NCBI RefSeq assembly: GCF_004102945.1
Contig: NZ_CP019384.1
Coordinates: 510,001-542,000, forward strand
DNA length: 32,000 nucleotides
Reading direction: 5' to 3'
Origin: Candidatus Velamenicoccus archaeovorus
Lineage (GTDB): Bacteria > Omnitrophota > Gorgyraeia > Velamenicoccales > Velamenicoccaceae
Shown: positions 4,054-26,154 of the stretch, piece after piece
Layout: each line of letters starts with the position of its first letter
How positions within the stretch are numbered: the stretch's first letter is position 1
Program-made: the position numbers and the translations under genes
Notes under the pieces: model-generated
What the model saw: only the letters and a program-made list of their open reading frames with translations
The model's database searches: none
What the model was told of the DNA's origin: nothing

Positions 4054-4109
4054 TTCAGTCTCCCTCCAGGAATCCCTGCATCTTTCCGCATCAAACCTCC
4101 GGATTTTTA

Positions 4110-4127
4110 TAGTGAAAAAAATCACAA
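4110..4127. promoter_or_regulatory. Rex-box-like palindrome 1
   Basis: TAGTGAAAAAAATCACAA compared with the Rex operator consensus TTGTGAA-N4-TTCACAA. GTGA/TCAC half-sites have the correct 6-nt separation. Located just upstream of the -35 of the rex promoter. Confidence 0.5.
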
Positions 4128-4173: not shown

Positions 4174-4191
4174 TTGTGATTTTTTGAACAA
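4174..4191. promoter_or_regulatory. Rex-box-like palindrome 2 (weaker)
   Basis: TTGTGATTTTTTGAACAA. The left half matches the Rex consensus; the right half GAACAA deviates from TCACAA at 2 positions. Lies downstream of the -10. Confidence 0.4.
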
Positions 4192-4270
4192 TATTATTTT
4201 CTTTTCATAAGGCCCCCTGCGCAAAGGTTCTTGTTCAGGCATCCGAAGAACGCAACCATCGAGGATACTT

Positions 4271-4927
4271 GTGGTAAACAAGAAATGCATTATCCGTCTT
4301 TTAAGGTATAAAAACGCCCTCCACAGGCTGAACAGCCTGGGGTTTGTGAAGGTGTTTTCCGACAACCTGGCGGATGCGGTAGGCGTGACCGCTTCCCAGG
4401 TGCGCAAGGATTTTTCCCTTTTCGGCATCTGCGGCAATAAGCGCGGCGGATACCAGATCGAGGCCCTGCTGGGCAAGCTCAACCATATCCTCGGCAAGAA
4501 CGAACAGCAGAAAGTGGTGATTGTCGGAGGGGGAAATATCGGGGCGGCGCTGATGAAGTATAAGGGTTTTGAGAAGGAGGGCGTCAAGATCGCCGCCTGT
4601 TTTGACATCGACCCCGCGAAATACAACCACAAGGAAGGGGATATCCCTGTTTTGCCTTTGGAGCAGCTCAGGGATTTTGTGCGTCAGAACCATATCAAGA
4701 TCGGCGTGATCGCCGTGCCGGATATCGCGGCCCAACAGGTCTTGGACCTGATGCTTGCGGCCGGAATCAAGGGGGTCCTGAATTTTGCGCCGATACGCTT
4801 GAGGGCGGCCAGCGACTGTGTCATCAACAATGTGAACCTGGTTTTGGAACTGGAGACTGTCATCTATTTCATCATTAACGGGCTGGAAAAATCCATCGCC
4901 GAGATCCATGAAGAGCAGAAATCTTAA
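4271..4927 (+). CDS. rex: Redox-sensing transcriptional repressor Rex
   Basis: 218 aa. N-terminal winged helix (RLLRYKNALHRLNSLGFVKVFSDNLADAVGVTASQVRKDFSLFG) plus a Rossmann motif (VVIVGGGNIGAAL). GTG start. Confidence 0.9.
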   Translation: MVNKKCIIRLLRYKNALHRLNSLGFVKVFSDNLADAVGVTASQVRKDFSLFGICGNKRGGYQIEALLGKLNHILGKNEQQKVVIVGGGNIGAALMKYKGFEKEGVKIAACFDIDPAKYNHKEGDIPVLPLEQLRDFVRQNHIKIGVIAVPDIAAQQVLDLMLAAGIKGVLNFAPIRLRAASDCVINNVNLVLELETVIYFIINGLEKSIAEIHEEQKS

Positions 4928-6743
4928 AACCAATATCATCCTGTCTTTTTTTGCCGTCATTTCTATTTTGGTGGTGTCGGTCGCTATTTTGGGTTATTAC
5001 ATTATCAACAGAAATGTCATCCAGCGTGCGCAAAGGCAGATCAAAAACGACTTGAAGGTTGCCCGATGGGCTTACAATACGGAGATTGACAGGATCCGCC
5101 TGGCGTTCAATCTCGTGGGGCCGTCTAACGACCTCGAAAGACTCAAAGGCCAGATCGGCCTGGATTATATTTCGGTCGTCGACAAGAACGACCTGCCGGC
5201 CATCAAGAGCGAGGTTGTCCGGGCGGCGTTTGAAGGCAAGGCGCTGGCTGCGACACGCATTATCGGTCCCGAAGAGCTTAAAGAGATGGGACGGTCTTTG
5301 TATGAGAAGTCCGTTATCGAGATCAAGCCTACCGCCAAGGCGCGGCCGACGGAAATACACATCCTTGACAGCGCCATGGCTGTCGGGTATGCCAAGCCGC
5401 TCTTTGATAATGCCGGCCACGTGCGGGCCGTCATGTATGGCGGCAAGATCATCAACAGGGATGCCGAGCTGGTGGATAAGATCCGCAGTTTTGTTTTCGA
5501 AAACCAGATGTATGAAGGCCGGCCGACGGGGACGGTGACGATCTTTTTGGATGATGTCAGGATCGCGACAAATGTCCTGGATAAGAACGGCGAGCGAGCT
5601 ATCGGCACTAGGGTTTCCGCTACCGTCTATAAAAAGGTGGTCGAGGAAGGCCGAACATTTTTAGACCGCGCCTTTGTTGTTACCGATTGGTATCTCACGG
5701 CTTATGAGCCTATCCGTAATATCGAAGGCAAGGTGATCGGCATCCTTTATGTCGGCATCTTGGAGAAGCCTTTTGTGGACATGCGCCGCAATGTTTTTCT
5801 GGTATTTTTTGGCATCGTGGTTCTCGCGTCTTTATTAGCCGTCATTCTGGGTCTCGTTTTGGCCCAGGGCATGGCGCGGCCTCTCACCAGGCTCCTGGAG
5901 GCCGCAGGCCGGTTTTCTAAAGGGGACCTTTCCCACAGGATCGGGATGTTCAACAGCCGCGTGCGCGAGATCGATGTCCTGGCCGAGGCCTTCAACGACA
6001 TGGCGGCAAAGATCGATGAGCGCGAAAAGAGGCTCGAGGCGCTTAATAAAGAACTGGAGGCACTGAACAAGAGCTATCTGGATCTCGTCGGCTTTGTGTC
6101 GCATGAGCTCAAGGGTATCCTTTCGTCGACGATCATGAATGCCTACACGGTCCGGGACGGGTTTTTGGGGATGGTGAACTTCAAGCAGCGCAAGGCCCTG
6201 GATTCGATTGCGCGCAATCTCGATTATCTGGAGGCGACCGTCAAAAATTTCCTGAATTTAAGCCGTTTGGAGAAAGGCGAGCTCGCCGTCAGCAAATCCG
6301 AAGTCTTGTTAAAGGAAAACATCGTTGATCCTTCCCTGGAGGCGTTCGGCCGGCAGGCGACGGACAAAGAGATGCAGGTGGTCAACGATACCGCCGCAGG
6401 TTTGAAAGTGATGGCGGACGTGGATCTTTTGCAGATCGTCGTCAACAATCTGATCGGAAACGCCGTCAAGTACGGCCAGCGGGGCGGTATCTTGCGCGTG
6501 AGCGCCGAGATCCGCAATGGCACAGCGCATGTTGAGGTCTATAATGACGGCAAACCCCTTGCGCAGGACGAGATAGATAAACTTTTCCGCAGGTTCTCGC
6601 GGTTGAAATCCGAGGAGACGCGTAACGTCCAGGGGACAGGTCTGGGATTGTTTGTCAGTAAGGAGATTATCGAAAAACATGGCGGTTGGATATGGGTAGA
6701 GGCCAGGCCGAAAGGGAATGCGTTTGTGTTTGAGATCAAATAA
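4908..6743 (+). CDS. Sensor histidine kinase with an extracytoplasmic Cache-like domain and HAMP
   Basis: 611 aa. TM1 (IILSFFAVISILVVSVAILGYYII), an outside domain of about 270 aa, TM2, HAMP, a coiled coil, the H-box FVSHELKG, and HATPase motifs (GNAVKYG, GTGLGL). The start overlaps the rex 3' end by 20 nt. Confidence 0.9.
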   Translation: MKSRNLKTNIILSFFAVISILVVSVAILGYYIINRNVIQRAQRQIKNDLKVARWAYNTEIDRIRLAFNLVGPSNDLERLKGQIGLDYISVVDKNDLPAIKSEVVRAAFEGKALAATRIIGPEELKEMGRSLYEKSVIEIKPTAKARPTEIHILDSAMAVGYAKPLFDNAGHVRAVMYGGKIINRDAELVDKIRSFVFENQMYEGRPTGTVTIFLDDVRIATNVLDKNGERAIGTRVSATVYKKVVEEGRTFLDRAFVVTDWYLTAYEPIRNIEGKVIGILYVGILEKPFVDMRRNVFLVFFGIVVLASLLAVILGLVLAQGMARPLTRLLEAAGRFSKGDLSHRIGMFNSRVREIDVLAEAFNDMAAKIDEREKRLEALNKELEALNKSYLDLVGFVSHELKGILSSTIMNAYTVRDGFLGMVNFKQRKALDSIARNLDYLEATVKNFLNLSRLEKGELAVSKSEVLLKENIVDPSLEAFGRQATDKEMQVVNDTAAGLKVMADVDLLQIVVNNLIGNAVKYGQRGGILRVSAEIRNGTAHVEVYNDGKPLAQDEIDKLFRRFSRLKSEETRNVQGTGLGLFVSKEIIEKHGGWIWVEARPKGNAFVFEIK

Positions 6744-6857
6744 GGGCATAAGTATTCATCTCTTGCTCAAACGTCCGCCACTGGTTCTTCGGCGCCTGCC
6801 TGCCGGTAGGCAGGGACGCCCGCCGATGCAGTGGTGGCGGGGGCTTGTAAATTTTCC

Positions 6858-6898
6858 CAAGGTTCGGCCGATAGGGCCAGGTGCAGAAAAATACCTTG
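6858..6898 (+). repeat. Partial leader-element copy (A0) containing the ccgatagggccaggtg motif
   Basis: caaggt (6858-6863) pairs with accttg (6893-6898) around tcggccgatagggccaggtgcagaaaaat. The sequence resembles the 3' part of A1 (7010-7050). Confidence 0.4.
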
Positions 6899-6917
6899 AT
6901 AGAGACAAACATATATT

Positions 6918-7057
6918 GACTCCTCGCGTAAACATCTTGTCAATATCTGTCTGCGACCAGTCCTCGCAGAGCTCAGGCGGGTTCCGCAGGAAGCGGAATA
7001 CTGGTCTTTCCGATAGGGCCAGGTGCATCCAGATATTTCCAAGATACGCAAGGAGTT
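6918..7057 (+). repeat. Rod-like hairpin element A1 of the structured leader (long form with a two-hairpin insert)
   Basis: The 5' arm actcct/gcgta/tcttgtcaatatctgtctgc pairs with the 3' arm gcatccagatatttccaaga/tacgc/aggagt. Conserved apical sequence gaccagtcctcgcagagctcaggcgg (6955-6980). Insert at 6982-7024. Confidence 0.6.
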
Positions 7058-7070
7058 AACCCAGAAAGGG

Positions 7071-7121
7071 TAGACCTCCGCATTCCACATAACGGAGGGT
7101 CTAATTCCGCCAGAGGCGGAA
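7071..7121 (+). repeat. Two inter-element hairpins of leader A
   Basis: tagacctccg (7071-7080) pairs with cggagggtcta (7093-7103). ttccgcc-aga-ggcggaa (7105-7121) forms a 7-bp stem. Confidence 0.55.
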
Positions 7122-7140
7122 GATTAAAGGAAAGTAACGT

Positions 7141-7236
7141 GACTCCCCGTGTAAGCATCTTGACAATTTATGTCTGCGACCAGCCTTCGCAGAGCTCAGG
7201 CGGGCAGCCATAAATTCTCAAGATACACGTGGAGTT
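7141..7236 (+). repeat. Rod-like hairpin element A2 of the structured leader (short form)
   Basis: 7142-7153 pairs with 7224-7235 (11/12), then a bulge agca, then 7158-7177 pairs with 7204-7223 (18/20). 26-nt apical sequence gaccagccttcgcagagctcaggcgg (7178-7203). Confidence 0.65.
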
Positions 7237-7265
7237 AATTCCGCCAGAGGCGGAATTAAGGAGGG
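7235..7265 (+). promoter_or_regulatory. SD-abutting hairpin plus ribosome-binding site of the first hydrogenase-operon gene
   Basis: ttaattccgcc-aga-ggcggaattaa is a perfect 11-bp stem (7235-7259). SD ggagg (7260-7264) is directly 3' of it, and GTG is at 7272. Confidence 0.6.
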
Positions 7266-7271
7266 TTTAGC

Positions 7272-7631
7272 GTGACAACGCCACTGGATATGATCAAAAA
7301 GAAAAGGGCCGAGGCGATCAACCGCATCCTCGGCAAGGGATATTTGTCGACGAAACGCGTCTATGTCGGCATGGCGACATGCGAGATCGCGGCGGGATCC
7401 AAAGATGTAATGGCGGTCTTTGAGAATGCCATCAAGAATGAAGGATTGACCGACGTGTATCTGAGTCAGAAGGGCTGCGCCGGTCGTTGTAACCTGGAGC
7501 CGACCGTCGAAGTTGTGGAGGAAGGTAAGATCCCTGTCAAATACGGCAAGGTAACCAGAGAAATGGCGCGCCAGATCATCGACCAGCATTTGAAAAAAGG
7601 CGAAGTGATCAAGGAGTGGATTATTCATTGA
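7272..7631 (+). CDS. Thioredoxin-like [2Fe-2S] ferredoxin-domain protein (HndB-like small hydrogenase subunit)
   Basis: 119 aa. VYVGMATCEIAAGS...KGCAGRCNLEPTVEV resembles the small Trx-like Fd subunit found in NAD(P)-linked [FeFe]-hydrogenase operons. Only 3 Cys (C37, C69, C73). Confidence 0.7.
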   Translation: MTTPLDMIKKKRAEAINRILGKGYLSTKRVYVGMATCEIAAGSKDVMAVFENAIKNEGLTDVYLSQKGCAGRCNLEPTVEVVEEGKIPVKYGKVTREMARQIIDQHLKKGEVIKEWIIH

Positions 7632-7656
7632 AAAGACACTGGGATACAAGAAAATT

Positions 7657-7785
7657 ACCAATGTCCAATTACCCATGAAATCCCAATTCTCAAATATCCA
7701 ATTTGTTCCTTGGTTATTTGTTTTTTGATTGGTCATTGGTTATTGGAAATTTAACGGGTGATTGGTGACATGGTGACTTGGTGAC
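7657..7785. repeat. AT-rich imperfect palindrome with 4 CCAAT and 4 ATTGG pentamers and 3 TGGTGAC direct repeats
   Basis: CCAAT at 7658, 7665, 7683 and 7698. ATTGG at 7728, 7735, 7742 and 7761. TGGTGAC at 7763, 7771 and 7779. The arms are roughly 70 percent complementary by eye. Confidence 0.5.
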
Positions 7786-15322: not shown

Positions 15323-16579
15323 ATGCAAAAGACACCCAAATCCCTTAGGCTGCACATCGGGTTGTTCGGCAGGACCAATGTCGGCAAGTCGAGCTTTTTG
15401 AATTATGTCGTCGGCCAGGATGTCGCGATCACGTCGCACATCCCCGGCACGACGACCGACGTGGTTGAAAAACCCATGGAATTGCTGCCGCTCGGCCCTG
15501 TCGTTTTCCTCGATACGGCCGGGCTCGACGATGCTTCCGAGCTCGGCGCCTTGAGGATCGAACGCACCAAAAAGGTTTTCGACCGGTGCGACGTATTGGT
15601 GCTGTTGACGGAACCCGAGGCGTGGGGAGGATATGAAGATGAGGTTTTGGCAGAGGCCCGGAAACGCCGGATCCCCGTCGTCATCGTCGTCAACAAGGCC
15701 GATACCCGCGTTCCTTCGGCTGATTTTATGGAGTCGTTGCGCCGGCGTTCTTCCCGCGTTTTGTCCTGCAGTTGTCTCGACCGTCAGGGGCGGGATCCTT
15801 TTGTCCATTCCTTCAAAGCGCAGCTGATCGAGATATGCCCCGAAGAATTTCTTCATCCGCCGGCGCTGGTCGGTGACCTCCTGGCGCAAGACAAGCTTTG
15901 CGTGTTCATCGTCCCTATCGACAAGGAGGCGCCGAAGGGGCGTCTGATCCTTCCCCAAGTCCAGGCGATCCGCGATGTGCTCGATGGCGGCAGAGGCGTT
16001 GTCGTCGTCAGGGAAAGCGAATATGCGTCATGCCTCAAAAATTTGAGGACGCCGCCGTCTTTGGTCGTCTGCGATTCCCAGGTGGTGGCCAGGATGGTTG
16101 AAGAGACGCCTCCGGAAATCCCATGCACGACTTTTTCCATCCTGTTCTCGCGCAGCAAGGGCGATCTGGACGAGGCGGTCAGGGGCGCCGGGGTTCTCGA
16201 TCAGATCCAAGAGGGTGACAAGATCCTGATTGCGGAGGCCTGTTCTCACCATGCGATCCAGGATGATATCGGCCGCGTCAAGATCCCGCGGTGGTTGTCT
16301 CAATTCAAAGGGTTCGATGTCCCTGTCGAGGTCTGCGCCGGCAAGGATTTTCCTGAAAACCTGAAAGGTTTCCGTCTTGTGATCCATTGCGGGGCCTGCA
16401 TGTTCACGAGGCGCGAGATGCTGGCCCGGATCGAGAGGGCCAGAGAGCAGGGGGTCGCCTTGACCAATTACGGCGTCGCCATCGCGTATCTGCAGGGAGT
16501 CCTGTCGCGCGTCCTGAGTCCGTTTCCGTCGGCGCTGTTGGTCTATCAAGAGACAGCCGGCACGCCTCAGCAGCATTAA
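15323..16579 (+). CDS. hydF: [FeFe]-hydrogenase maturase GTPase/scaffold HydF
   Basis: 418 aa from ATG 15323; the upstream part of ORF 15191 overlaps the preceding gene. P-loop GRTNVGKSS, DTAG, NKAD, and C-terminal CSHH...HCGAC cluster ligands. Confidence 0.9.
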   Translation: MQKTPKSLRLHIGLFGRTNVGKSSFLNYVVGQDVAITSHIPGTTTDVVEKPMELLPLGPVVFLDTAGLDDASELGALRIERTKKVFDRCDVLVLLTEPEAWGGYEDEVLAEARKRRIPVVIVVNKADTRVPSADFMESLRRRSSRVLSCSCLDRQGRDPFVHSFKAQLIEICPEEFLHPPALVGDLLAQDKLCVFIVPIDKEAPKGRLILPQVQAIRDVLDGGRGVVVVRESEYASCLKNLRTPPSLVVCDSQVVARMVEETPPEIPCTTFSILFSRSKGDLDEAVRGAGVLDQIQEGDKILIAEACSHHAIQDDIGRVKIPRWLSQFKGFDVPVEVCAGKDFPENLKGFRLVIHCGACMFTRREMLARIERAREQGVALTNYGVAIAYLQGVLSRVLSPFPSALLVYQETAGTPQQH

Positions 16580-16713
16580 CTTCCAGCCCCGATTTTTCTT
16601 TTTAGGTTTTTTTCGTGCAAGGCCCCGCTAGAGTAATTTCCCACGCCTGATAATTTCAAACTATCTTCCGCTACGACGCTGCATTGTGCGTCCATCACCC
16701 TCACAGAAAAACC

Positions 16714-16742
16714 TTGACGAAATAATTATAGTATGCTATATT
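16714..16742 (+). promoter_or_regulatory. Sigma70-type promoter of the tetR-efflux operon with overlapping short palindromes
   Basis: TTGACG (16714-16719), 17-nt spacer, TATATT (16737-16742). ATAATTAT and TATAG-N4-CTATA palindromes in the spacer/-10 region are candidate TetR operators. Confidence 0.4.
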
Positions 16743-16777
16743 TTTGATGTATGCTTCAAATATTGAAGGAGGCCGGC

Positions 16778-17452
16778 ATGGTCCATAAGGAATATTCATT
16801 GCGCGAACGAAAGCATGCCAAAACGAAGATCGCCATCATGAATGCTTTCATCAAGCGCCTGGAGAAGACGCGTTTCGACGATATCTCCGTCCGCCAGATC
16901 TGCGAGGATGTCGATGTTTCCGAAGGCACCTTCTTCAACTATTTTCCGGAAAAGATCGACATCATCAACTATTATATGCACCTGGAGTTTCTTCAGGTTA
17001 TCTGGAAGGCCCGTAAAGACGTGCCGGAAGGCGCGTATGTGGCCTTGATCGATGCCGTTCTTGAAAACCTGGGAAAGGAATTATTGCGTTATGACAATAT
17101 CATTTATCAGTTGATAGCCCTGATGATCATCCAGCAGCAGAGGCCCAAGAATCTGTCCATATCCAACCTTGAAAGGCAGACTTTTCTGCCGGATTGCGAA
17201 GGTATAGAGGATATAAAACTGATGCTGCCGGACGATTTCTTCAGCGAGTGCCTCAAAGAGGCCGTCCGTCATGGCGAGCTCTCCAAAGACATTAAAATCG
17301 ACGATTTGCAGGTATCGTTAATGACAATTTTGAGCGGTACGTTATTGGCGGCTAAATTCGCCGCCAATAAGGATATTGTTTATCATTTCAGGCGTCAATT
17401 GCGGTTTCTCTGGAAGGGTTTGGGGATAAAGAGAGCGGCGAGGAGAAGATGA
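16778..17452 (+). CDS. TetR/AcrR family transcriptional regulator
   Basis: N-terminal HTH (KTKIAIMNAFIKRLEKTRFDDISVRQICEDVDVSEGTFFNYFPEK). ATG 16778 has SD aaggagg. Confidence 0.85.
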   Translation: MVHKEYSLRERKHAKTKIAIMNAFIKRLEKTRFDDISVRQICEDVDVSEGTFFNYFPEKIDIINYYMHLEFLQVIWKARKDVPEGAYVALIDAVLENLGKELLRYDNIIYQLIALMIIQQQRPKNLSISNLERQTFLPDCEGIEDIKLMLPDDFFSECLKEAVRHGELSKDIKIDDLQVSLMTILSGTLLAAKFAANKDIVYHFRRQLRFLWKGLGIKRAARRR

Positions 17453-18798
17453 GAAGACGTTTGATCTTTGCAGCCAGTCGGGTCATTATCGCGGCTCTTA
17501 CCTTAAATATGGCCATGGCGGTTGGTTATGCCGCGGAGTGCCCCGTTGTTTTAGAGATAGGTCTTGACGAGGCCATCGGAAGGGCCCTGGATACCAGCGA
17601 AGAATTGAAGATCAAGGATAAAGAGGTTGATAAAAGCGAGGGGGCCTACCGGGAGGAGCGCGCAGAGATGCTGCCGCATTTTACCGCCAAGTCGCAATGG
17701 ACGCGTAACCTGTCTTATCCGGACAGCGCGGCCGCCGAGATAGCCGATTACGAGTCCGAAAACACTATCAACGCTTCGCAGGTCCTCTGGTCATTCGGCA
17801 GGGTCCTGTATGCGGTGAACGCCGCCAAAAAAGCGGTGGAGGCGACCAGATTCAACAGGGATGCCACCAGAGAGGAGATCGTCTATACCGCCAAGTTGAG
17901 CTATTACAGCTGTCTTTTGGCCAAGAATACCTTGTCCATCACCGAGAAGTCGTACGCGAATGCCCTCGAGAACAAGGATCTGTTGGGCCAGCGTTCCTAT
18001 GGCGGCCGCAGCTCCAGGTATGAGATCCTTAGGATGAATACGGATGTGGCTTCGCGCGTTCCTGCGGTCAACGAGGCCAGGACAGAGTTCGACGCGGCCG
18101 TAGAGACTTTGAAGAGGCTTATTGATGTGAGTCATGAATGCAGTATTTCCTTGCTTGGGGATTTTAAGGATAAATATGAATCTTACGATTACGAGGCGCT
18201 CGTTTTCGTCATGGCTGAAAGAGAACCGTATCTCAAGAGCTTGGATAAGACCATTGAATCGGCCGATGCAAAGGTCAAGAGCAAATTCGCCGCCCTATTC
18301 CCGACCGTATCCGCCTTTTCCTCATGGGGTTATGCCGGGGGCGGCAACGAACATTCATTCCCGTCCGGCGGCGACCTGGATAATTATTCCCTCGTGGGCT
18401 TTAAGATCGATATCCCGATCTGGGAAGGCGGGCTCAAGCAGGCACAGTTGAGCCAATCGAGGGCCACCAAGGATATCGCGGTCTTGAGAAAACAGCAGGT
18501 GTGGAGGAACTACATGCTGGAACTCAAGAAAGCCTTTTTGGAATATGAACAGTATAAGGACAATCTCAAGGCCAATATCGAAGCGGTGGACCTGGCGCAA
18601 GAGTCGTTCAAGCAGACGCAGGAGATGTTCGCGTCTGGCCAGGTAACTCTGACCGACCTGAACGACGCCGAGCTTCTGTTGACCAACCAGAGGCTGAATA
18701 AAGAAATGACGTTGTTCAACATCAATGTGACGCTGGCCAGGATAGAAAAGTTGATCGCGGAGAAAGCCAATGAAATGTCCGTCGTTAAAAAATCTTAA
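17449..18798 (+). CDS. TolC-family outer membrane efflux protein
   Basis: 449 aa with a signal-like N-terminus and two repeated OEP-type halves. 4-nt overlap with tetR. Confidence 0.8.
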   Translation: MRRRLIFAASRVIIAALTLNMAMAVGYAAECPVVLEIGLDEAIGRALDTSEELKIKDKEVDKSEGAYREERAEMLPHFTAKSQWTRNLSYPDSAAAEIADYESENTINASQVLWSFGRVLYAVNAAKKAVEATRFNRDATREEIVYTAKLSYYSCLLAKNTLSITEKSYANALENKDLLGQRSYGGRSSRYEILRMNTDVASRVPAVNEARTEFDAAVETLKRLIDVSHECSISLLGDFKDKYESYDYEALVFVMAEREPYLKSLDKTIESADAKVKSKFAALFPTVSAFSSWGYAGGGNEHSFPSGGDLDNYSLVGFKIDIPIWEGGLKQAQLSQSRATKDIAVLRKQQVWRNYMLELKKAFLEYEQYKDNLKANIEAVDLAQESFKQTQEMFASGQVTLTDLNDAELLLTNQRLNKEMTLFNINVTLARIEKLIAEKANEMSVVKKS

Positions 18799-19489
18799 TC
18801 CCAGGGCAAAGGTATACGCGGCCATGCTTTTGTTTGGCGTCATCGCCGTGTTTATCAGGATCGTCCTTGTGCAGCTTGACCGCGGCCGTCAGATCGTCAG
18901 CTTTGTTTCCGAGTGGGAGCGATACGGCAGGCCGGTCCTTGTCAAAGAAATGATGGCGGTTGATGTTCCTGTGTATACGAAATTCACCGTCATCATCGGC
19001 CAGGATGGTTCGGCCAGAGGTTTTGTCACGGGAGACATCAAGGACAAGCTTGCACAAGGCCAGGCGGTCTACCCGAACGCCAATAGCGGGATCCCTTGCG
19101 GCGCGATCTCAGAGATCGGTCAGGAGCTTGATATGGAGACGGGGATGTTCCCGGTCACGGTGGGTTTTAGCAATTTTTCAGGCGCGTCCGGCTCCAGGCT
19201 GGTGCTTTTTGCGCAAACACAAACTTTGAAAGCCGCATTGGTCGTGCCCAATGATATCGTTGATATTTCTAAAGATGGTTCTTTTTTGTGGAAGGTCGAG
19301 GACGGCAAGGCCAGGAAGATCCATGTCAAGATCGGTTCCCGTAACGGCTATGGGACCCTTATCGCCGAAGGCATCGGGTCCGGCGATTTGGTCGTGCTCA
19401 GGGGTCAGGATTCGTTAAGCCAGAACGATAAGGTGAAGATCGTGGGCCGGCAGGCCGGTCCCGCGCGCAGGACAGGAATGGGGCTATAA
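18770..19489 (+). CDS. Efflux RND periplasmic adaptor (membrane-fusion protein), unusually short
   Basis: 239 aa. N-terminal TM anchor and beta-rich lipoyl/barrel-like segments (FVTGDIKDKLAQGQAVY, GDLVVLRGQDSLSQNDKVKIV) with no long coiled-coil segment. The start may be further downstream. Confidence 0.65.
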   Translation: MKCPSLKNLNPRAKVYAAMLLFGVIAVFIRIVLVQLDRGRQIVSFVSEWERYGRPVLVKEMMAVDVPVYTKFTVIIGQDGSARGFVTGDIKDKLAQGQAVYPNANSGIPCGAISEIGQELDMETGMFPVTVGFSNFSGASGSRLVLFAQTQTLKAALVVPNDIVDISKDGSFLWKVEDGKARKIHVKIGSRNGYGTLIAEGIGSGDLVVLRGQDSLSQNDKVKIVGRQAGPARRTGMGL

Positions 19490-19493
19490 AACA

Positions 19494-22400
19494 ATGATCG
19501 CTTATTTTGTCAGACATCGGATCACCACCATCATGTTCGTTCTGGTGTTTGTGGTCCTCGGTGTATACAGTTATGCCAACCTGCCTATCGAGAAGACGCC
19601 GAAGATGGACTTTCCTATTGTGACGGTTTCGGTGACGTATCCGGGCGCAACCCCCTTAGAGGTCGAAACTCTGGTTGTCAAAAAGATCGAAGACGTGGTT
19701 GCCGAGATCTCCGAGATCAAGAAGATCAAAAGCCAGGCCTATGAAAGTCTGGCTTTTATTTCTATTGAGTTCTTGATCGAGGCAGACGTCAATGTCAAGT
19801 CCATCGAGGTCAAGGACAAGGTGGATGCGATCTTGAACGACCTGCCCGATTCAATCGAAAAACCCATCATCGAGAAATACGATCCCTTGATCGTACCGGT
19901 TATGGAATTGGTGCTTTCCAGTGATACGCTGGACGGCCGGGATCTCTATGAATACGCCGACAAGACCCTGAAGACCAAGATTTCTTCTATTGCGGGGGTC
20001 GCCAAGGTCGATGTCTATGGCGGCAAGAAGAGGCAGGTCAACGTCTGGCTCGACCCCATGCTGATGAAACAGCATTACATCAGTATCGGCGAGGTGGTCA
20101 ATGCGATGCTCTTGAAGAATATGAATATCCCTGCCGGCGCCTTGGAGAAGGGTTTTAATTCGCTCGGGGCCAGGTTTACCGGGGAATTCGAGAGCATCGA
20201 TGAGATAGCACGGATGAAGCTGGTTTCTTCCGACGGATCCAGCTGCCTCCTGAAAGATATCGCGACGATAGAAGACAGCTATAAGAAGATTGATTCCATG
20301 GCGCGGTATAACGGCAGAGAAGTCGTAGGCCTTTCCATCAATAAATCTTCCGACGGCAACGCGGTATCCATCGCCCGGGATCTGCGGCGCAGACTGGATG
20401 CGTTCAGGGCGATCCTGCCTCGCGGTGTCAACCTTGATGTAGCGACGGACACGACGACGTTTATCGTCGATGAGACCCATGCGACGATTTGGAATATTTT
20501 TATTGGTCTTTTGCTGACAGCCGCCATCCTTTATTTTTTTATAGGCAGGTGGGATATTGCTTTTATCGCCTGCATCATTATCCCCACTTCCATTATCTCG
20601 ACCCTGTTTCCTATGTGGATGTCGAAGTTTTCGATCAACATGCTGACCTTGTTGGCCATCGCTTCGGTGCTCGGGACATTGATCTCGAATGCCATCGTCA
20701 TCATTGAGAACGTATTGGTGCATCTTGAACGTTCTGATGACCCTGAGAAGGCCGCTATCGAGGGGACCCAGGAAGTTTTTGTCCCTATTATCGCGGCTAC
20801 CGGCACCAATCTCGTCGTTTTTATGCCGTTGTCCCTGATGAGCGGGATCGTTGGCGTGTTCATGAAGTCTTTCGGCTTAACGGTTGTCTACGCCACATTA
20901 TTTTCATTGCTGGCTTCTTTTGCTCTGACCCCTATGCTGTGCGCCGCGCTCCTGCAGCCCAAAAAAGGCGAGAAAAGGGGCACCGGAAAACCAAATGTTA
21001 TCTTGGAGGCATTATTCGCTCCATTGCATTGGATACGTCAAGGCATTGATGCCGGCATGGAATTCTTGAAAAAGGAATATAGACATATCTTTGATCTCAT
21101 CTTTCGATATCCCAAGGCGACCATTATTTCCGTTGTCCTGCTGTTTTTTGGGTCATTGATGCTGGTGCCGTATCTCGAGAGCGATTTTTCGCCGAAGTCC
21201 GATGAGGACCAGTTCGTCATCAATATGGTTTTGCCGCAAGGCTCTACGATTGAACGCACCCTGGAAGCCTGCAGGCTGGTAGAGGGGTATATTGAAAAGA
21301 TCCCGGAGAAGAAATCGTATCTGACCAACATCGGAGAGAATGGGGTCGAGAACGCCAAGATCACGCTGGATCTTGTGTCTTTAAAAGACAGGAAGAGAGC
21401 GGACACGGAGATCATGGATGAGCTTACCAAATTCATCGCTGCGATCCCCGATGTCGAGGTGAGTTATGACCGGGGTATGTCTGCCGAATCCGGCACCGGA
21501 GATGTGGCCATAGACCTCTATGGTATTGATTACGATACGATGATCGGGCTTTCCCAGCAGATGAAGGGCTTGATGGAGCAGAGCGGCTATTTCAAGAGCG
21601 TTATTTTGTCTTACAAATTCCCCGGCGATGAAGTCCGTCTCAAGCCCCTGCAGGAAAAAATCGCAGAGTATGGGCTCACGGCCGCAACCGTAGGGACAAG
21701 CTTCCGGTCGTCGGTATATGGAGAAGATACGAATACGTATAAGGAAAAGGGCGAAGAATACAAGATCAATATTGAGTTGAACGACGCCTACGCGCAGGAG
21801 GCCGATGACATCAAGGTCATATCCGTGCTTTCGCGTAAAGGGCTTATCCCTTTGGATGAGCTCGGCACGCTCGTGATCGACAAGACCGTTCCTATGATCC
21901 GTCATCGCGACAGGGTGAGGGTTATCCACCTGGACGGTTTCCTGGGCAAAAGCTCGATGGGCGTGGTCAGCGGCGTCCTCGACAAGCGGTTCAAGGCCAT
22001 GCAATTCCATGAAGGCTATGGTTATCGTTATGTGGGGAATGCTGAACACATGGACGAAGCGACCCGTGAACTTGGCAAGGCGTTTGTGCTCGGGGTCATC
22101 CTGACGTTCATGCTGCTTTGCGCTCTTATGAATTCGTTGATCGCCTATCCTTTGGCCATCATGACGACGGTCGCGACCTCGTTGATCGGGATCATCCTGG
22201 GTTTGTTTTTCCTGGGTCTATCCATCAATATCGCATCGATGATGGGCATCGTTATGCTCGTGGGTATGGTGGTCAATAACGCGATATTGATGCTGGATTA
22301 TACCCTGATCAAGATGAGGGAGGGCGTGCCGGTCAAGGAAGCGCTGTGGATCGGGGCTACCGAGAAATTCCGGGCGATCATGATGACATCCATCGCGATC

Positions 22401-22565
22401 ATCCTGGGTGTCTTGCCGCAGCTCTGGTCGGTCATGGAAGCCAAGAGGGCCATGGGCGGCGTCATGACCGGCGGCATGCTTGCTTCGATCGTGTTCACTT
22501 TTATTCTTGTTCCCGTTGTCTTCTGGTATCTGGTCCGTTTCGAAAAAAGATTTGTCAAACATTGA
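19494..22565 (+). CDS. RND efflux transporter permease (AcrB/HAE family)
   Basis: 1023 aa with 12-TM RND topology and two large periplasmic loops. Confidence 0.92.
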   Translation: MIAYFVRHRITTIMFVLVFVVLGVYSYANLPIEKTPKMDFPIVTVSVTYPGATPLEVETLVVKKIEDVVAEISEIKKIKSQAYESLAFISIEFLIEADVNVKSIEVKDKVDAILNDLPDSIEKPIIEKYDPLIVPVMELVLSSDTLDGRDLYEYADKTLKTKISSIAGVAKVDVYGGKKRQVNVWLDPMLMKQHYISIGEVVNAMLLKNMNIPAGALEKGFNSLGARFTGEFESIDEIARMKLVSSDGSSCLLKDIATIEDSYKKIDSMARYNGREVVGLSINKSSDGNAVSIARDLRRRLDAFRAILPRGVNLDVATDTTTFIVDETHATIWNIFIGLLLTAAILYFFIGRWDIAFIACIIIPTSIISTLFPMWMSKFSINMLTLLAIASVLGTLISNAIVIIENVLVHLERSDDPEKAAIEGTQEVFVPIIAATGTNLVVFMPLSLMSGIVGVFMKSFGLTVVYATLFSLLASFALTPMLCAALLQPKKGEKRGTGKPNVILEALFAPLHWIRQGIDAGMEFLKKEYRHIFDLIFRYPKATIISVVLLFFGSLMLVPYLESDFSPKSDEDQFVINMVLPQGSTIERTLEACRLVEGYIEKIPEKKSYLTNIGENGVENAKITLDLVSLKDRKRADTEIMDELTKFIAAIPDVEVSYDRGMSAESGTGDVAIDLYGIDYDTMIGLSQQMKGLMEQSGYFKSVILSYKFPGDEVRLKPLQEKIAEYGLTAATVGTSFRSSVYGEDTNTYKEKGEEYKINIELNDAYAQEADDIKVISVLSRKGLIPLDELGTLVIDKTVPMIRHRDRVRVIHLDGFLGKSSMGVVSGVLDKRFKAMQFHEGYGYRYVGNAEHMDEATRELGKAFVLGVILTFMLLCALMNSLIAYPLAIMTTVATSLIGIILGLFFLGLSINIASMMGIVMLVGMVVNNAILMLDYTLIKMREGVPVKEALWIGATEKFRAIMMTSIAIILGVLPQLWSVMEAKRAMGGVMTGGMLASIVFTFILVPVVFWYLVRFEKRFVKH

Positions 22566-22598
22566 TCTTGCGATAGGCCACGTCCGTACGTCCAAACA

Positions 22599-23165
22599 AT
22601 GAAAGAACTGGATATTCTGTTTTTGTTGACAAGGTTTATAGATAAGAACGGGTCTGTTTTTGCCCACGGCCGGCGCGTTGCCGGGATTGCCTGCGCCATG
22701 GCCAAAAAGATGGGGTATTGCGACGAAGGGATCAGGCATATTCATTGTGCCGCCGTTGTTCATGATATCGGGAAGATCAATGTCCCGCAAGAAATTGTCA
22801 ATAAACCTGGTTGTCTCAGCGACCATGAGATCGCGATTATCAGGAAACATCCCGAACTGGGATTTTGTCTTTTGAAAGACACGAAGCCGGAGTCTATTGT
22901 TGCGGAGGTTGCCCTTCAGCATCACGAGAGGATGGATGGTTCAGGGTATCCTTTCGGGCTGTGCGCCCGGGACATCCATCCTGTTGCAAGGATTGTTGCC
23001 GTTGCCGATGTGATTGATGCGATGACTTCTTTGCAGGCGTATAGGCCGGCCCTAAATATGCACGATGCCCTCGGAGAACTCATGCGGAACCGCGGATCGC
23101 TATACGATGCCGGAGTCGTCGATGCCAGCGTATCGCTTTTTGAGCGGGGAGAGTATCATGTCTGA
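22599..23165 (+). CDS. HD-GYP domain protein (putative cyclic-di-GMP phosphodiesterase), no sensor domain
   Basis: 188 aa, H...HDIGK...HHERMDGSGYPFG. Confidence 0.85.
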   Translation: MKELDILFLLTRFIDKNGSVFAHGRRVAGIACAMAKKMGYCDEGIRHIHCAAVVHDIGKINVPQEIVNKPGCLSDHEIAIIRKHPELGFCLLKDTKPESIVAEVALQHHERMDGSGYPFGLCARDIHPVARIVAVADVIDAMTSLQAYRPALNMHDALGELMRNRGSLYDAGVVDASVSLFERGEYHV

Positions 23166-23595
23166 GGTGCCCTATGATGTGAGGCTTTCCGAATTATTGC
23201 AGAGGGTTATGCGGGATTTCCGTGTCCAAGCCTACCGCTATTCACTGTCCCAAAAACTTCCTTTATCAGAGTGCCGGGTGTTGTTTCTGTTGTGTAGCGG
23301 CTTGCCGGTTAAAATGAACAAAATAAAACAGGATTTGTTTGTTTCCGGGGCATGTGTCACAAGCATCGCCGACCGGCTTATCAGAAAAAAACTCATCATA
23401 CGCCGCCGCAGCGATACAGACCGCAGGAAGGTAAGTCTCGTACTTACGGATAAAGGAAGGAGTTGCTTGGTGCGATTGGAAGCGCGCCGGAAGGGTTTGC
23501 TGAAAGCGATATTCGGGAACTTAACAGAAAGAGATAAAAAAACAATAGAGGACGGCGTTTCCATTCTTGCCGTGTCTTTGGAGTCCGTAAAATGA
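23158..23595 (+). CDS. MarR family transcriptional regulator
   Basis: 145 aa from ATG 23158 (ATGTCTGA overlap with the HD-GYP stop). Winged-helix region LFVSGACVTSIADRLIRKKLIIRRRSDTDRRKVSLVLTDKG. Confidence 0.8.
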   Translation: MSEVPYDVRLSELLQRVMRDFRVQAYRYSLSQKLPLSECRVLFLLCSGLPVKMNKIKQDLFVSGACVTSIADRLIRKKLIIRRRSDTDRRKVSLVLTDKGRSCLVRLEARRKGLLKAIFGNLTERDKKTIEDGVSILAVSLESVK

Positions 23596-23651
23596 ATCTG
23601 ATCCATAAGGCGTTACAGGTGACGCTATGGTGCTGATGAAAAAATAAATTT

Positions 23652-24320
23652 ATGAAAAGTTATTTATGGCGGGCATTGGTGAGCAACAAGTACTACCATT
23701 TATTGGCTGTGCTTGTTGTTTTCTTTTTTATCGTGCCGTTCGGGACGGGTGGCCCGATGCAGCATTTCGTCTTTCCGCTGATGTTTTTGTCCGGCATCCT
23801 TTTTTCTTTAAGGGCACTGGAAGTCAAAAGGGCGGAATTTCTCCTTATGGCCTTGACCGGCGTATCGGCATTGGCCATCGGCATTTTGTTTGAGTTCTTC
23901 CATGCTCCCGCGGCAGGAGGCAGGATCCTGCTTGAAATACCCATCGTGATCTACGCGTTTTTCTTATTGATGTCCATAGCGCTTCTGATCTCCAAGATGT
24001 TCGCTGTCTCAAAAGTGACCAGCGATACGATCGCCGGAGGCATCAGCGTCTATTTGCTTCTGGGGTTCCTGTGGACGGTGTTTTATTATGCCGTGTATAT
24101 TTACGACCCCTGCGCTTTTAATTTTCCTTCGCCGGCCCATCAATACAGTTTGTTCTATTTCAGCTTTTCGACGTTGACGACCGTGGGTTATGGGGATGTT
24201 TACCCGGTGAACAGGATGGCGATGTCCCTTTCCAACCTGGAGGCCATCACCGGCCAGATGTATGTCGCAATCTTCATTTCCAGGCTTGTGGGGTTGCATA
24301 TTGCAGCCCATAACAAATAG
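23652..24320 (+). CDS. Potassium channel family protein (ion transport 2 type)
   Basis: 222 aa, multi-TM, with the selectivity filter TTVGYGD. Confidence 0.8.
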   Translation: MKSYLWRALVSNKYYHLLAVLVVFFFIVPFGTGGPMQHFVFPLMFLSGILFSLRALEVKRAEFLLMALTGVSALAIGILFEFFHAPAAGGRILLEIPIVIYAFFLLMSIALLISKMFAVSKVTSDTIAGGISVYLLLGFLWTVFYYAVYIYDPCAFNFPSPAHQYSLFYFSFSTLTTVGYGDVYPVNRMAMSLSNLEAITGQMYVAIFISRLVGLHIAAHNK

Positions 24321-24327
24321 GCAAAAG

Positions 24328-25627: not shown

Positions 25628-25636
25628 TGTTATAAT
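25628..25636 (+). promoter_or_regulatory. Extended -10 promoter element (TGTTATAAT)
   Basis: TGn-TATAAT in an AT-rich stretch with a weak -35. It would give a 5' UTR of about 510 nt for trxA that includes the whole structured leader. Confidence 0.35.
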
Positions 25637-25826
25637 ATAGAAGATTTTTTTGAGAACGGAAGGACGAGGAGCGTGCCTCGCGTCAACCCGCCTTGAGAGT
25701 GATATATCTTGTTTTTATCAAATGAGTTGCAAATATGATGTAATATTTTTTTATCCCGGCGTAAGGTTTCATCTTTGCGGGGTGAAACATTTGTTTGGAA
25801 TTTAAGAAGAATTAAGGAATTAACGT

Positions 25827-25965
25827 TACTCCTCGTGTAAGCATCTTGACAATTTATGCCTGCGACCAGCCTTCGCAGAGCTCAGGCGGGCAGTCATAAA
25901 TTCTCAAGATACACTGCCGCAGAAAGCGGCACACCGGCCATCCGATAAGGCCGGGTGAAGGAGTT
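25827..25965 (+). repeat. Rod-like hairpin element B1 of the structured leader (with the two-hairpin insert on the 3' side)
   Basis: 4 substitutions versus A2 over 89 nt. 25845-25863 pairs with 25890-25908. The apical 26-mer (25864-25889) is identical to A2. Insert at 25915-25956. Confidence 0.65.
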
Positions 25966-25978
25966 AACCCAGAAAGGG

Positions 25979-26033
25979 TAGGCCTCCGCAATACCAAATA
26001 AGCGGAGGGCCTAATCTCGTCAGAGGCGGAAGA
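25979..26033 (+). repeat. Inter-element hairpins of leader B
   Basis: taggcctccgc (25979-25989) pairs with gcggagggccta (26002-26013). A degenerate copy of the ttccgcc hairpin follows (26015-26033). Confidence 0.5.
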
Positions 26034-26043
26034 CATTAAGAAA

Positions 26044-26122
26044 GACCCCTTGCCTAAGCGCTTGTCCGTTTCACTCACAAGCACCAGAGGTGTTCGTGAA
26101 ATGGACTTGCGCAGGCAGGGGT
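26044..26122 (+). repeat. Rod-like hairpin element B2 (divergent sequence, same architecture)
   Basis: acccct(t)gc (26045-26053) pairs with gcaggggt (26115-26122). gcct/gcgc pairs with gcgc/aggc. cttgtccgtttcac (26061-26074) pairs with gtgaaatggacttg (26096-26109). Apical hairpin with an AGAG loop. Confidence 0.55.
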
Positions 26123-26150
26123 AATTCCGCCGGAGGCGGAATTAAGGAGG
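26122..26150 (+). promoter_or_regulatory. SD-abutting hairpin plus ribosome-binding site of trxA
   Basis: taattccgcc-gga-ggcggaatta (26122-26144), then AAGGAGG (26144-26150) and ATG 26155. Confidence 0.6.
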
Positions 26151-26154
26151 CCCC

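Follow-up and report, generated by a model that had tools for sequence, protein, structure and literature searches.

A 32,000-nt stretch of the Candidatus Velamenicoccus archaeovorus genome (contig NZ_CP019384.1, positions 510,001 to 542,000; hereafter the window) carries FeFe-hydrogenase genes, in the order HndB-like 2Fe-2S protein, NuoF-like, HydA, NuoE-like, HydG/E, and HydF from position 7272, behind a Cache/HAMP histidine kinase gene (4908-6743), and the locus raises the question of what fills the 528 nt between the kinase stop codon (6741-6743) and the GTG start codon of hndB (7272). The original prediction had described this gap as highly organised, which it is, and had placed at 6918-7271 a composite leader with two rod-like hairpin elements (A1 and A2), either a ligand- or protein-binding leader of the hydrogenase operon or a member of a structured dispersed repeat family. 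Here, we show that the second alternative holds: the spacer structure is a member of a lineage-specific, multi-copy family of modular hairpin repeats, and at this locus it was inserted recently. The region 6918-7271 is structured as predicted, while the organised region proved to be larger, because 6768-6887 also consists of hairpin modules or fragments of them; the whole of 6744-7271 is a mosaic built of small hairpin modules, labelled C to G, and longer rods, labelled A and B (Table 1). All coordinates are window positions unless a label precedes them, and L003 to L023 are labels of related contigs or loci that were compared with the window.

The comparison of HndB homologues led to syntenic rex-kinase-hndB loci in relatives, where the kinase-hndB spacer measures 76 nt in L017-L022 (HndB 95% identical, 86-89% nucleotide identity and collinear with the window), 111 nt in L023 (HndB 92%), 59 nt in L012 (89%), 1 nt in L013 (86%), and 48 nt in L014 (85%), in every case without a rod. 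Because relatives with 85-95% identical HndB have these short, rodless spacers, the mosaic at the hydrogenase locus was inserted recently into an intercistronic spacer that had measured 1-111 nt. Among the syntenic loci compared, it is limited to the window and L004/L011, whose flanks are 93-96% identical to those of the window and whose spacer measures 380 as against 528 nt. The two versions, with ~94-95% identity in flanking DNA, differ by whole modules: mini-hairpins E and F sit within the A1 apex in the window but follow the A1 3' arm in L004, module C occurs in the window and is absent from L004/L011, and a 108-nt block after the kinase stop is found in the window only. Modules have been gained, lost, and moved within a very short evolutionary span.

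The empty site reads ...CAAATTAAGGAGGAGTTTGTG (equally ...CCTTGTTATAGGCAAATTAAGGAGGAGTTTGTG), and the filled site has TTTAGGAAA at the left and AATTAAGGAGG at the right. In the filled site, CCTTGATATAGGCAAATTTAGGAAA of the empty site precedes A1 and GGAATTAAGGAGGGTTTAACGTG follows the last D hairpin; the mosaic therefore lies between a decayed and a live copy of the Shine-Dalgarno (SD) region. TTAAGGARR SD-like motifs bound the mosaic on both sides, where the empty site has one, and both flanking copies of the SD region are also the consensus ends of the repeat unit. A second filled/empty polymorphism occurs before a thioredoxin gene, where the window and L018 carry the mosaic and L012 has an empty site, although L012 shares with the window the TGTTATAAT promoter and the first ~100 nt of the leader. 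Rod A2 and its paralogue B at the thioredoxin locus are 95% identical, above the 86-89% between the window and its syntenic relatives, which suggests recent copying or conversion within the genome.

Besides A1 and A2, the window contains a third rod copy (25818-25914; 95% identity to A2 over 97 nt). An exact-core scan found two loci in one metagenome-assembled genome (MAG) labelled 'uncultured Planctomycetia', a lower bound for that MAG because the GACCAG... pattern is too strict and many copies read CATCCAG or CACCCAG, and a slightly looser core found nine metagenome loci. A covariance model (R1) built from 14 copies gave 17 sense-strand matches at E < 1e-8, distributed over 11 different spacers in the window and related contigs and including more divergent copies in already-known loci; its reverse-strand matches merely overlapped sense-strand ones. 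The family is thus carried by the window, by related metagenome contigs, and by the Planctomycetia-labelled MAG. The hosts are referred to as PVC (Planctomycetes-Verrucomicrobia-Chlamydiae)/Omnitrophota-like because the nearest named HndB homologues belong to Candidatus Omnitrophota/Omnitrophica MAGs. The original prediction had matched the structure to no known RNA family, and Rfam returned no match for the whole window at gathering thresholds, only the chance-level matches weev_FSE and HOTAIR_3 for 6700-7300 at E <= 10, and no match for the L008 mosaic or the L012 hairpin array. None of the described families matched by sequence or structure model, and literature searches turned up nothing on this lineage. 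A phage origin was rejected, as neither the core nor the unit of D hairpin plus SD had an exact match in IMG/VR. A riboswitch or other sensor specific to the hydrogenase is not supported: syntenic loci do without the element, rods precede unrelated genes, and the module content varies.

Both rods were recovered where they had been predicted, with their arms detected by a repeat finder and folds more stable than those of dinucleotide shuffles, none of which matched the real folds (z-scores of -5.5 for the D hairpin to -6.8 for the whole spacer; Table 1). The 26-nt apical sequence, which indeed differs by two substitutions between A1 and A2, had been described as closed by the upper stem; it is not a loop but is itself paired, as an 8-bp helix extension with a 3-nt tip, CC.AGCCUU..GC(AGA)GC..AGGC.GG. 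Compensatory changes also occur in this apex (GCCU/AGGC versus GUCC/GGAC), with A1 of the window as an intermediate that has one U-G and one C-A pair, and the AGA tip is replaced by an extra hairpin in three copies (L010, L003, and L008).

Covariation was assessed on two alignments. In a structure-blind MAFFT alignment of 14 copies, 89% of the cells are paired and 7 of 39 pairs show double-sided changes, a result reached by none of 500 shuffles and compared with at most one double-change pair in slid controls; in an alignment of 17 copies fitted to the covariance model, 11 pairs show double-sided changes as against at most four in slid controls. The paired differences already noticed between the two stems, aatTtAtg/caTaAatt in A2 versus aatAtCtg/caGaTatt in A1, are among the covarying pairs, as are two pairs of the apex. 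The small modules vary in the same manner, with UUCCGC/GCGGAA versus UGCCGC/GCGGCA in E and E', CUGGCC/GGCCAG versus CCGGCC/GGCCGG in F and F', and a compensated D hairpin variant (UUCCGCC/GGCGGAA versus UCCCGUC/GACGGGA). The rod helices are clearly maintained by compensatory substitutions.

The complete unit consists of a pseudo ribosome-binding site (pseudo-RBS), rod A, UUAA, optional mini-hairpins E/F, G, and C, and mostly a terminal D hairpin with SD. The pseudo-RBS has the consensus TTAAGGAAA-WWAACGT (core AAGGAAA-N-ACGTT) and, judged from the 5' flanks of 18 copies, precedes nearly every A rod in the family. Rod A measures ~95 nt and contains ~40 bp, arranged as ACUCC(Y)CG(Y)GU, a 4-nt bulge, a 20-bp helix with fixed C-C and U-C mismatches, the 8-bp apex, and a closing ...ACRCG(N)GGAGU. 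Insertions of whole hairpins into the rod are confined to four fixed sites, namely before the apex (L009 and L008), after the apex (E+F, as in A1), within the 3' basal strand (E'+F' in window copy B or a G hairpin in L005), and at the tip (L010, L003, and L008). Between units stand an internal D hairpin and module C, which comprises a small hairpin (C1) and a CCUCC/GGAGG hairpin (C2) with the loop CAAUACCAAAUAAG or CAUUCCACAUAA. At most loci the terminal unit reads UUAAUUCCGCC-AGA-GGCGGAAUUAAGGAGG and ends 4-8 nt before the start codon; the glutamine synthetase leader of L003 ends differently, with another module and AAGGAG. The two small hairpins between the rods and the perfect 11-bp hairpin abutting the SD, all recognised in the original prediction, are present as well (Table 1). 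The module repertoire is older and broader than this particular rod, since L013 has a minimal, very divergent rod and a C-like module between hydA and the next gene and L012 has arrays of E/F-like hairpins.

Table 1. Parts of the mosaic before hndB and of the second family locus in the window
Feature	Coordinates	Strand	Parts and evidence
GC-rich imperfect rod	6768-6847	+	Directly 3' of the kinase stop; repeat finder; G mini-hairpin at the tip (6795-6814, cctgcctgccggtaggcagg), with another insertion of it in the L005 copy; L004/L011 lack this segment in the orthologous spacer
Fragment of a second rod subfamily (cttgtaaattttccca.ggttcg), then F-type hairpin remnant	6845-6887	+	Subfamily fragment matches L005 1219-1245 and L013 14026-14040; CCGATAGGGCCAGGTGCA of this segment recurs exactly at 7010-7027
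Older-spacer remnant (ccttgatagagacaaa)	6888-6917	+	Comparison with empty relatives; homologous to ccttgttataggcaaaTTAAGGAGG, which directly precedes hndB in L017-L022
Rod A1, type II	6918-7057	+	-61.1 kcal/mol, z -5.7; covariance model 80.1 bits, E 3.8e-15; basal helix 6919-6929/7046-7056, 4-nt bulge, upper helix 6934-6954/7025-7045 (arms 81% complementary, repeat finder), paired apex 6955-6980; E (6981-6999) and F (7001-7024) inserted after the apex
Module C	7057-7103	+	z -3.0; C1 7057-7071 (aaccc-agaa-agggt); C2 7071-7103 (CCUCC/GGAGG stem, loop CAUUCCACAUAA, a loop motif found on different stems at other loci); direct repeat at 25958-25990
Internal D hairpin, then pseudo-RBS	7102-7140	+	D 7105-7121 (ttccgcc-aga-ggcggaa); pseudo-RBS 7124-7140 (ttaaaggaaagtaacgt)
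Rod A2, type I, minimal 95-nt form	7141-7236	+	-43.0 kcal/mol, z -6.6; covariance model 108 bits, E 2.5e-21; basal helix 7142-7152/7225-7235, bulge, upper helix 7157-7177/7204-7224 (arms 90% complementary, 26 nt apart, repeat finder), paired apex 7178-7203 ending in GC-AGA-GC; direct repeat with A1, 88% identity over 65 nt (repeat finder)
Terminal D hairpin, live SD, and 7-nt spacer to GTG 7272	7235-7271	+	Perfect 11-bp hairpin 7235-7259, z -5.5; SD AAGGAGG 7258-7264
Second family locus (thioredoxin)	25808-26031	+	83.1 bits; -61.1 kcal/mol, z -6.1; in order pseudo-RBS, rod B (25827-25914, 95% identical to A2 over 97 nt), E' (25915-25931) and F' (25933-25957) in the rod B 3' basal strand, closing AAGGAGT (25958-25964), module C (25965-26012), internal D (26014-26031)
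Terminal D hairpin and SD before thioredoxin ATG 26155	26121-26154	+	D 26121-26145; SD AAGGAGG 26144-26150

The L012 array lies in an 876-nt spacer (L012 1271-2146) with short tandem repeats (gaatgaa and ggcttata-like units) and at least four E/F-like hairpin pairs with CAWTWCCRAAUWAG loops, and follows a small terminator-ended transcript with its own TTGACA-17-TATAGT promoter. A loop consensus CA(A)UWCC(R)(M)AUAAG was found at 7071-7103 and 25979-26012 of the window and in L003, L006, L010, L012, and L013, always on the sense strand and on wholly different stems (CCUCCG, CCUUCG, CUGGCG, CCCGCG, and UCUUCCC); it could be a binding motif in its own right.

The downstream gene is visible for ten spacers. 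In all ten, rod and gene share one orientation and the mosaic extends to an SD a few nucleotides before the start codon, mostly ending in a D-type hairpin and AAGGAGG or AAGGGGG. The downstream genes encode HndB of the FeFe hydrogenase, a thioredoxin (with pta-ackA), a small Thioredoxin_3 protein, an OmpA-family protein, a membrane-anchored Hsp20, DoxX, a LemA-like protein, a type III glutamine synthetase, a DUF4900 protein, and a 273-aa protein of unknown function; a degenerate copy lies upstream of gyrA. Since the OmpA-family gene is located behind the Thioredoxin_3 gene, the element is intercistronic there as well. No copy was found in antisense, in a convergent spacer, or within a gene in the ~250 kb searched. 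The original prediction had named copies in both orientations and in 3' or convergent spacers as the sign of a generic repeat; all copies found are sense-oriented. The link of the family to translation starts is thus genuine, and repeats of the REP or MITE type do not usually show one.

As for transcription, rex (4271-4927; Put_DNA-bind_N and CoA_binding domains) precedes the kinase gene and has upstream of it a near-consensus promoter, TTGACA-16-TATATT, between two Rex-operator-like inverted repeats (4108-4127 and 4174-4193; aGTGAAAAAAATCACAa and TTGTGATTTTTTGAACAA) about 3 kb upstream of the mosaic. The same layout of promoter and Rex-operator-like repeats occurs in L012, L013, and L014, and it suggests NADH/NAD-responsive control of the whole rex-kinase-hydrogenase operon. 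Judging from spacers of down to 1 nt in the relatives, rex, the kinase gene, and the hnd genes most likely form one operon, so that the mosaic would be an intercistronic insertion and not a promoter-proximal leader. At the Hsp20 locus of L006, a TTGCTA-17-TAAAAT promoter lies ~20 nt before the rod, and in the thioredoxin leader an extended -10 element, TGtTATAAT (25628-25636), lies 3' of the patatin terminator, while the promoter scan found no sigma-70-type promoter inside the hydrogenase or the thioredoxin mosaic. Because the visible promoters lie upstream of the rod, the elements are most simply read as transcribed RNA of the 5' untranslated region (5'-UTR) or of intercistronic spacers.

Several other candidate signals in these leaders were rejected. 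A promoter in the rod was considered on account of a TTGACA in the 5' arm, which has no matching -10 element, and the scan found no sigma-70-type site in the window leaders; an 'H' module (TTGTAAGG...TATAGGCAAA) was dismissed as a promoter because of its variable spacing (12-15 nt). A 22-codon open reading frame (ORF) in A2, from the ATG of caatttATG to the TAA of GGAGTTAA, is not conserved as a leader peptide: its start reads CTG in A1, L004_1, and L006_2 and ACG in L005, and 44-nt inserts break its frame. A GTG-initiated ORF after the A2 pseudo-RBS is likewise not conserved in other copies. The Hsp20 promoter that is intact in L006 is split in the orthologous L009 by an IS200/IS605-type insertion (L009 7190-7745, - strand) with a 132-aa Y1 transposase (7247-7645) and end hairpins of its own (cccgggctttNagcccggg); as this is an ordinary insertion sequence (IS) with its own hairpin ends, a link between it and the repeat family was rejected. 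A D-like hairpin (taatcccgtc-aaa-ggcgggat) followed by GGAAAGG stands at 780-817 directly before the amtB ATG (818) in the absence of an A rod, and in L014 the hndB SD is immediately preceded by a hairpin; such placement may be a general habit of the lineage.

The explanation that we favour, if with modest confidence, is a co-transcribed mosaic repeat that resembles BIME, BOX, or Correia elements but is linked to the SD and affects mRNA processing, mRNA stability, and presentation of the RBS. The mosaic would be co-transcribed as 5'-UTR or intercistronic RNA, and its long rods would serve as processing and/or stabilising structures, either as RNase III substrates or as barriers at the 5' end. 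The stacked rod helices of 11, 20, and 8 bp reach the length of at least ~20 bp used as a criterion for RNase III, which makes the rods predicted substrates. Downstream, probably highly expressed genes would in this way be given an mRNA fate apart from that of the upstream regulatory genes; such a separation would be of use between rex and the kinase gene, regulators in low demand, and the hydrogenase structural genes, in high demand. Other products encoded behind the element, namely glutamine synthetase, OmpA, Hsp20, and the thioredoxins, are as a rule abundant. The SD would be presented by the D hairpin and shielded by it from the sequence upstream. Spread of the mosaic probably occurs by recombination at the TTAAGGARR SD-like junction repeats that bound it, and transposition is a possible route as well.

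Several observations weigh against parts of this explanation. First, the strand is not identified by the folding itself: the - strand folds slightly better than the + strand (-47.2 versus -43.0 kcal/mol for A2, -64.2 versus -61.1 kcal/mol for A1, and a z-score of -8.4 versus -6.8 for the whole spacer), and the non-Watson-Crick cells across the 14 copies, 8 of G-U type and 12 of A-C type, give no preference for either strand. The argument that a folded + strand RNA is favoured by G-T pairs did not stand up, and wobble pairs and folding energies were set aside as uninformative on this point; the strand was assigned from gene orientation and the SD. Second, the compensatory changes stem from about three sequence types (I, II, and the L006_2 type) and L003 5418-5575 is a chimera of a type II 5' arm and a type I 3' arm in which two covarying pairs are broken, so that independent compensatory events are few. 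Third, at several loci the mosaic fills the entire spacer behind a co-directional upstream gene, and a non-sigma-70 promoter within the mosaic is therefore possible. Fourth, we infer co-transcription, processing, and any effect on expression from the sequence. Finally, the predicted probability of an unpaired SD is 0.24-0.87 in filled and 0.12-0.91 in empty leaders, with no systematic difference; sequestration or exposure of the SD was accordingly rejected as a common function on the basis of these partition-function accessibilities, and insulation or presentation of the SD by the D hairpin is only weakly suggested.

One alternative, which we consider unlikely, is a dedicated cis-regulatory RNA of a stress, redox, or high-expression regulon that binds a protein or a ligand or senses temperature, where a trans factor would read the fixed U-C/C-C mismatches and the 4-nt bulge, or the CAAUACCAAAUAAG-type C2/F loops, and coordinate translation or decay of the downstream genes. 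The family seems small (11 exact-core loci in two whole-collection scans) and strictly sense, the mosaic reaches the SD, and two thioredoxins, Hsp20, DoxX, and the hydrogenase would suit stress or redox control; glutamine synthetase III, the OmpA-like and DUF4900 proteins, and the degenerate copy at gyrA, however, do not fit a single regulon. Some unpaired or mismatched positions never change although the helices covary (all 17 copies have U-C at columns 33/152), and five different stems, among them those of the more distant L012 and L013, retain the C2/F loop consensus, but the apex accepts insertions of whole hairpins, module order and content vary between near-identical genomes, and no conserved multi-helix junction exists. 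The element is also absent from orthologous hydrogenase loci with 85-95% identical HndB and from the L012 thioredoxin locus. As regards an expression platform, no terminator follows the rods and the SD lies outside the D hairpin; for an RNA thermometer of the ROSE or fourU type, the terminal hairpin is a GC-rich perfect 11-bp helix that ends before AAGGAGG, and pairing of the SD is inconsistent. Together with the lack of an Rfam match, these results argue against this alternative.

We also doubt that the family is a purely selfish, non-autonomous DNA element of the MITE, REPIN, or PATE type, mobilised in trans by a transposase and without host function, whose sense placement before start codons would reflect a target preference for SD-like AAGGAGG or, alternatively, strand-specific single-strand transposition combined with purging of harmful insertions. 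The recent insertion with filled/empty polymorphism at two loci, the paralogue identity (A2/B, 95% over 97 nt) in excess of that to syntenic relatives (86-89%), and the size of the rod, a long inverted repeat as in REPINs and MITEs, all fit such an element, as do the GGTAG-plus-palindrome layout of C2 (gGGTAG-ACCTCCG...CGGAGGT), which recalls REPs, and the occupation of intercistronic spacers by another hairpin repeat family. SD-like direct repeats flank the mosaic, but these belong to the element consensus and are not a random duplicated target, and no clear terminal inverted repeats (TIRs) with fixed-length target-site duplications (TSDs) were found. A Y1 (IS200-type) transposase is present in the lineage; the sole transposase seen, however, is that of the ordinary IS200/IS605 element in the Hsp20 promoter, whose end hairpins are unrelated, and no cognate IS was seen in the ~250 kb searched. 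The same ~250 kb contain no antisense, convergent-spacer, or intragenic copy, all ten known cases are sense with the mosaic always reaching a live SD, and compensatory changes preserve the helices. Reading of the sequence also led to the rejection of an integron attC site, since R''/R' core sites (RYYYAAC/GTTRRRY), a cassette array, and an integrase are all missing.

A more far-reaching possibility, to which we would give only a small chance, is that the unit is a self-propagating, sense-oriented mobile cassette for leader and translation initiation that integrates at SDs via its TTAAGGARR ends. If so, it would leave the decayed SD upstream and supply a fresh, hairpin-insulated SD downstream, would rewire mRNA processing, stability, and translation of the gene it lands before, and would constitute a mobile cis-regulatory element unlike MITEs, REPs, integron cassettes, and mobile promoters. 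A signal at the DNA level, i.e., operators of dimeric regulators, a promoter module ('mobile promoter'), or cruciform or nucleoid-protein sites, is very unlikely: a TTGACA in the 5' arm (7161-7166), the strand symmetry of the fold, the usefulness of a promoter where the mosaic fills the spacer behind a co-directional gene, and the described reuse of near-identical upstream regions before unrelated genes (PMC3575422) speak for it, but no sigma-70-type -35/-10 pair occurs within the hydrogenase or thioredoxin mosaics, good promoters lie upstream of the rod where seen, the arm spacing ranges from 26 to >100 nt owing to inserts, and arms of the same genome differ while staying complementary (aatTtAtg/caTaAatt versus aatAtCtg/caGaTatt), which fits pairing and not recognition by a single protein.

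The favoured reading, a co-transcribed mosaic repeat, has its closest precedents among known interspersed repeats. BIME/REP elements, for which a role as stabilisers or attenuators of mRNA within operons has been reported (PMC3049150, PMC3184786), are likewise intergenic mosaics of a small hairpin repertoire in variable combinations, with modules that vary between strains, and are co-transcribed with their neighbours, as we infer for the present family. They differ in that they stand mainly after stop codons, in alternating orientations and hundreds of copies, and are linked to RAYT transposases, whereas the present copies are all sense, lie 5' of the start codon, and end in the SD of the gene, with no RAYT seen; the main unit is a ~95-nt rod instead of a ~35-nt palindrome. 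BOX elements of Streptococcus pneumoniae, whose boxA and boxC have been reported to stimulate downstream genes (PMC3049150), share the modular build (boxA-boxB(n)-boxC), the very variable length, and the strong folding upon transcription, and are often 5' or 3' adducts to operons; unlike the present family, they have TIRs and TSDs, occur in both orientations, and supply no RBS, and they show no sequence similarity and belong to a different host phylum. Correia elements (NEMIS, Neisseria), which are cleaved by RNase III, and ERIC/IRU elements, which undergo orientation-dependent RNase E cleavage with an effect on mRNA stability (PMC2229807), are inverted repeats of 100-155 nt that form long mRNA hairpins between co-transcribed genes. 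Both groups enter their sites in either orientation and duplicate a TA, and promoter and IHF motifs are found in Correia elements. The present rods show none of these traits, and behind them there is always a terminal module with an SD, in most cases a D hairpin.

Mobile promoters (PMC3575422) resemble the family in that near-identical upstream regions precede non-homologous genes within a genome and in close relatives, but here the shared part is a structured leader with RBS and no recognisable promoter, and the visible promoters are upstream and locus-specific. Riboswitches and RNA thermometers such as ROSE are also 5' leaders of several hairpins with covarying helices and the last hairpin beside the SD, and one family member precedes an Hsp20 gene, as ROSE precedes small heat-shock genes. 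The family departs from them in having no conserved junction or ligand pocket, an SD that does not pair within the last hairpin, unrelated downstream genes, no conservation at orthologous loci, and no Rfam match.

Other repeats and rearrangements were observed in the window. A second, unrelated inverted-repeat family (arms AATTACCAATGTCCAAT / ATTGGTCATTGGTTATT) is found at 7653-7744 in the 180-nt hndB-hndC spacer; L014-L016 have it in the same spacer, L014 with a further copy at 16126-16213, and in L018 and L019 this spacer is merely 15 nt long. A block of ~7.8 kb between hydF and the patatin gene (16545-24322), with a TetR-like regulator, an outer-membrane efflux protein, and an AcrB-type RND pump, is missing from the otherwise collinear L017-L019. 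Furthermore, an 83-nt direct repeat with 72% identity (360-442 and 2324-2406) flanks amtB; its second copy lies within a P-II gene (2084-2425) and the first aligns with the P-II gene of the syntenic L017, so that the pair looks like two P-II (glnB-like) paralogues around amtB.

We know of no earlier work on post-transcriptional control in uncultured PVC/Omnitrophota-like anaerobes, and the hydrogenase spacer holds a lesson for the annotation of their genomes: a structured, covarying leader of a hydrogenase gene resembles a new riboswitch, yet it is a recently inserted repeat. Mosaic hairpin repeats such as BIME, BOX, Correia, and ERIC elements are well known, but a family that is strictly sense, lies 5' of genes, and ends in an RBS is unusual among them. 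The alleles of close relatives that are filled or empty at the same locus provide ready natural controls. The family would exemplify natural portable 'UTR plus RBS' parts, which could uncouple downstream from upstream expression in operons, as in the case of the hydrogenase genes and their rex-kinase regulators.

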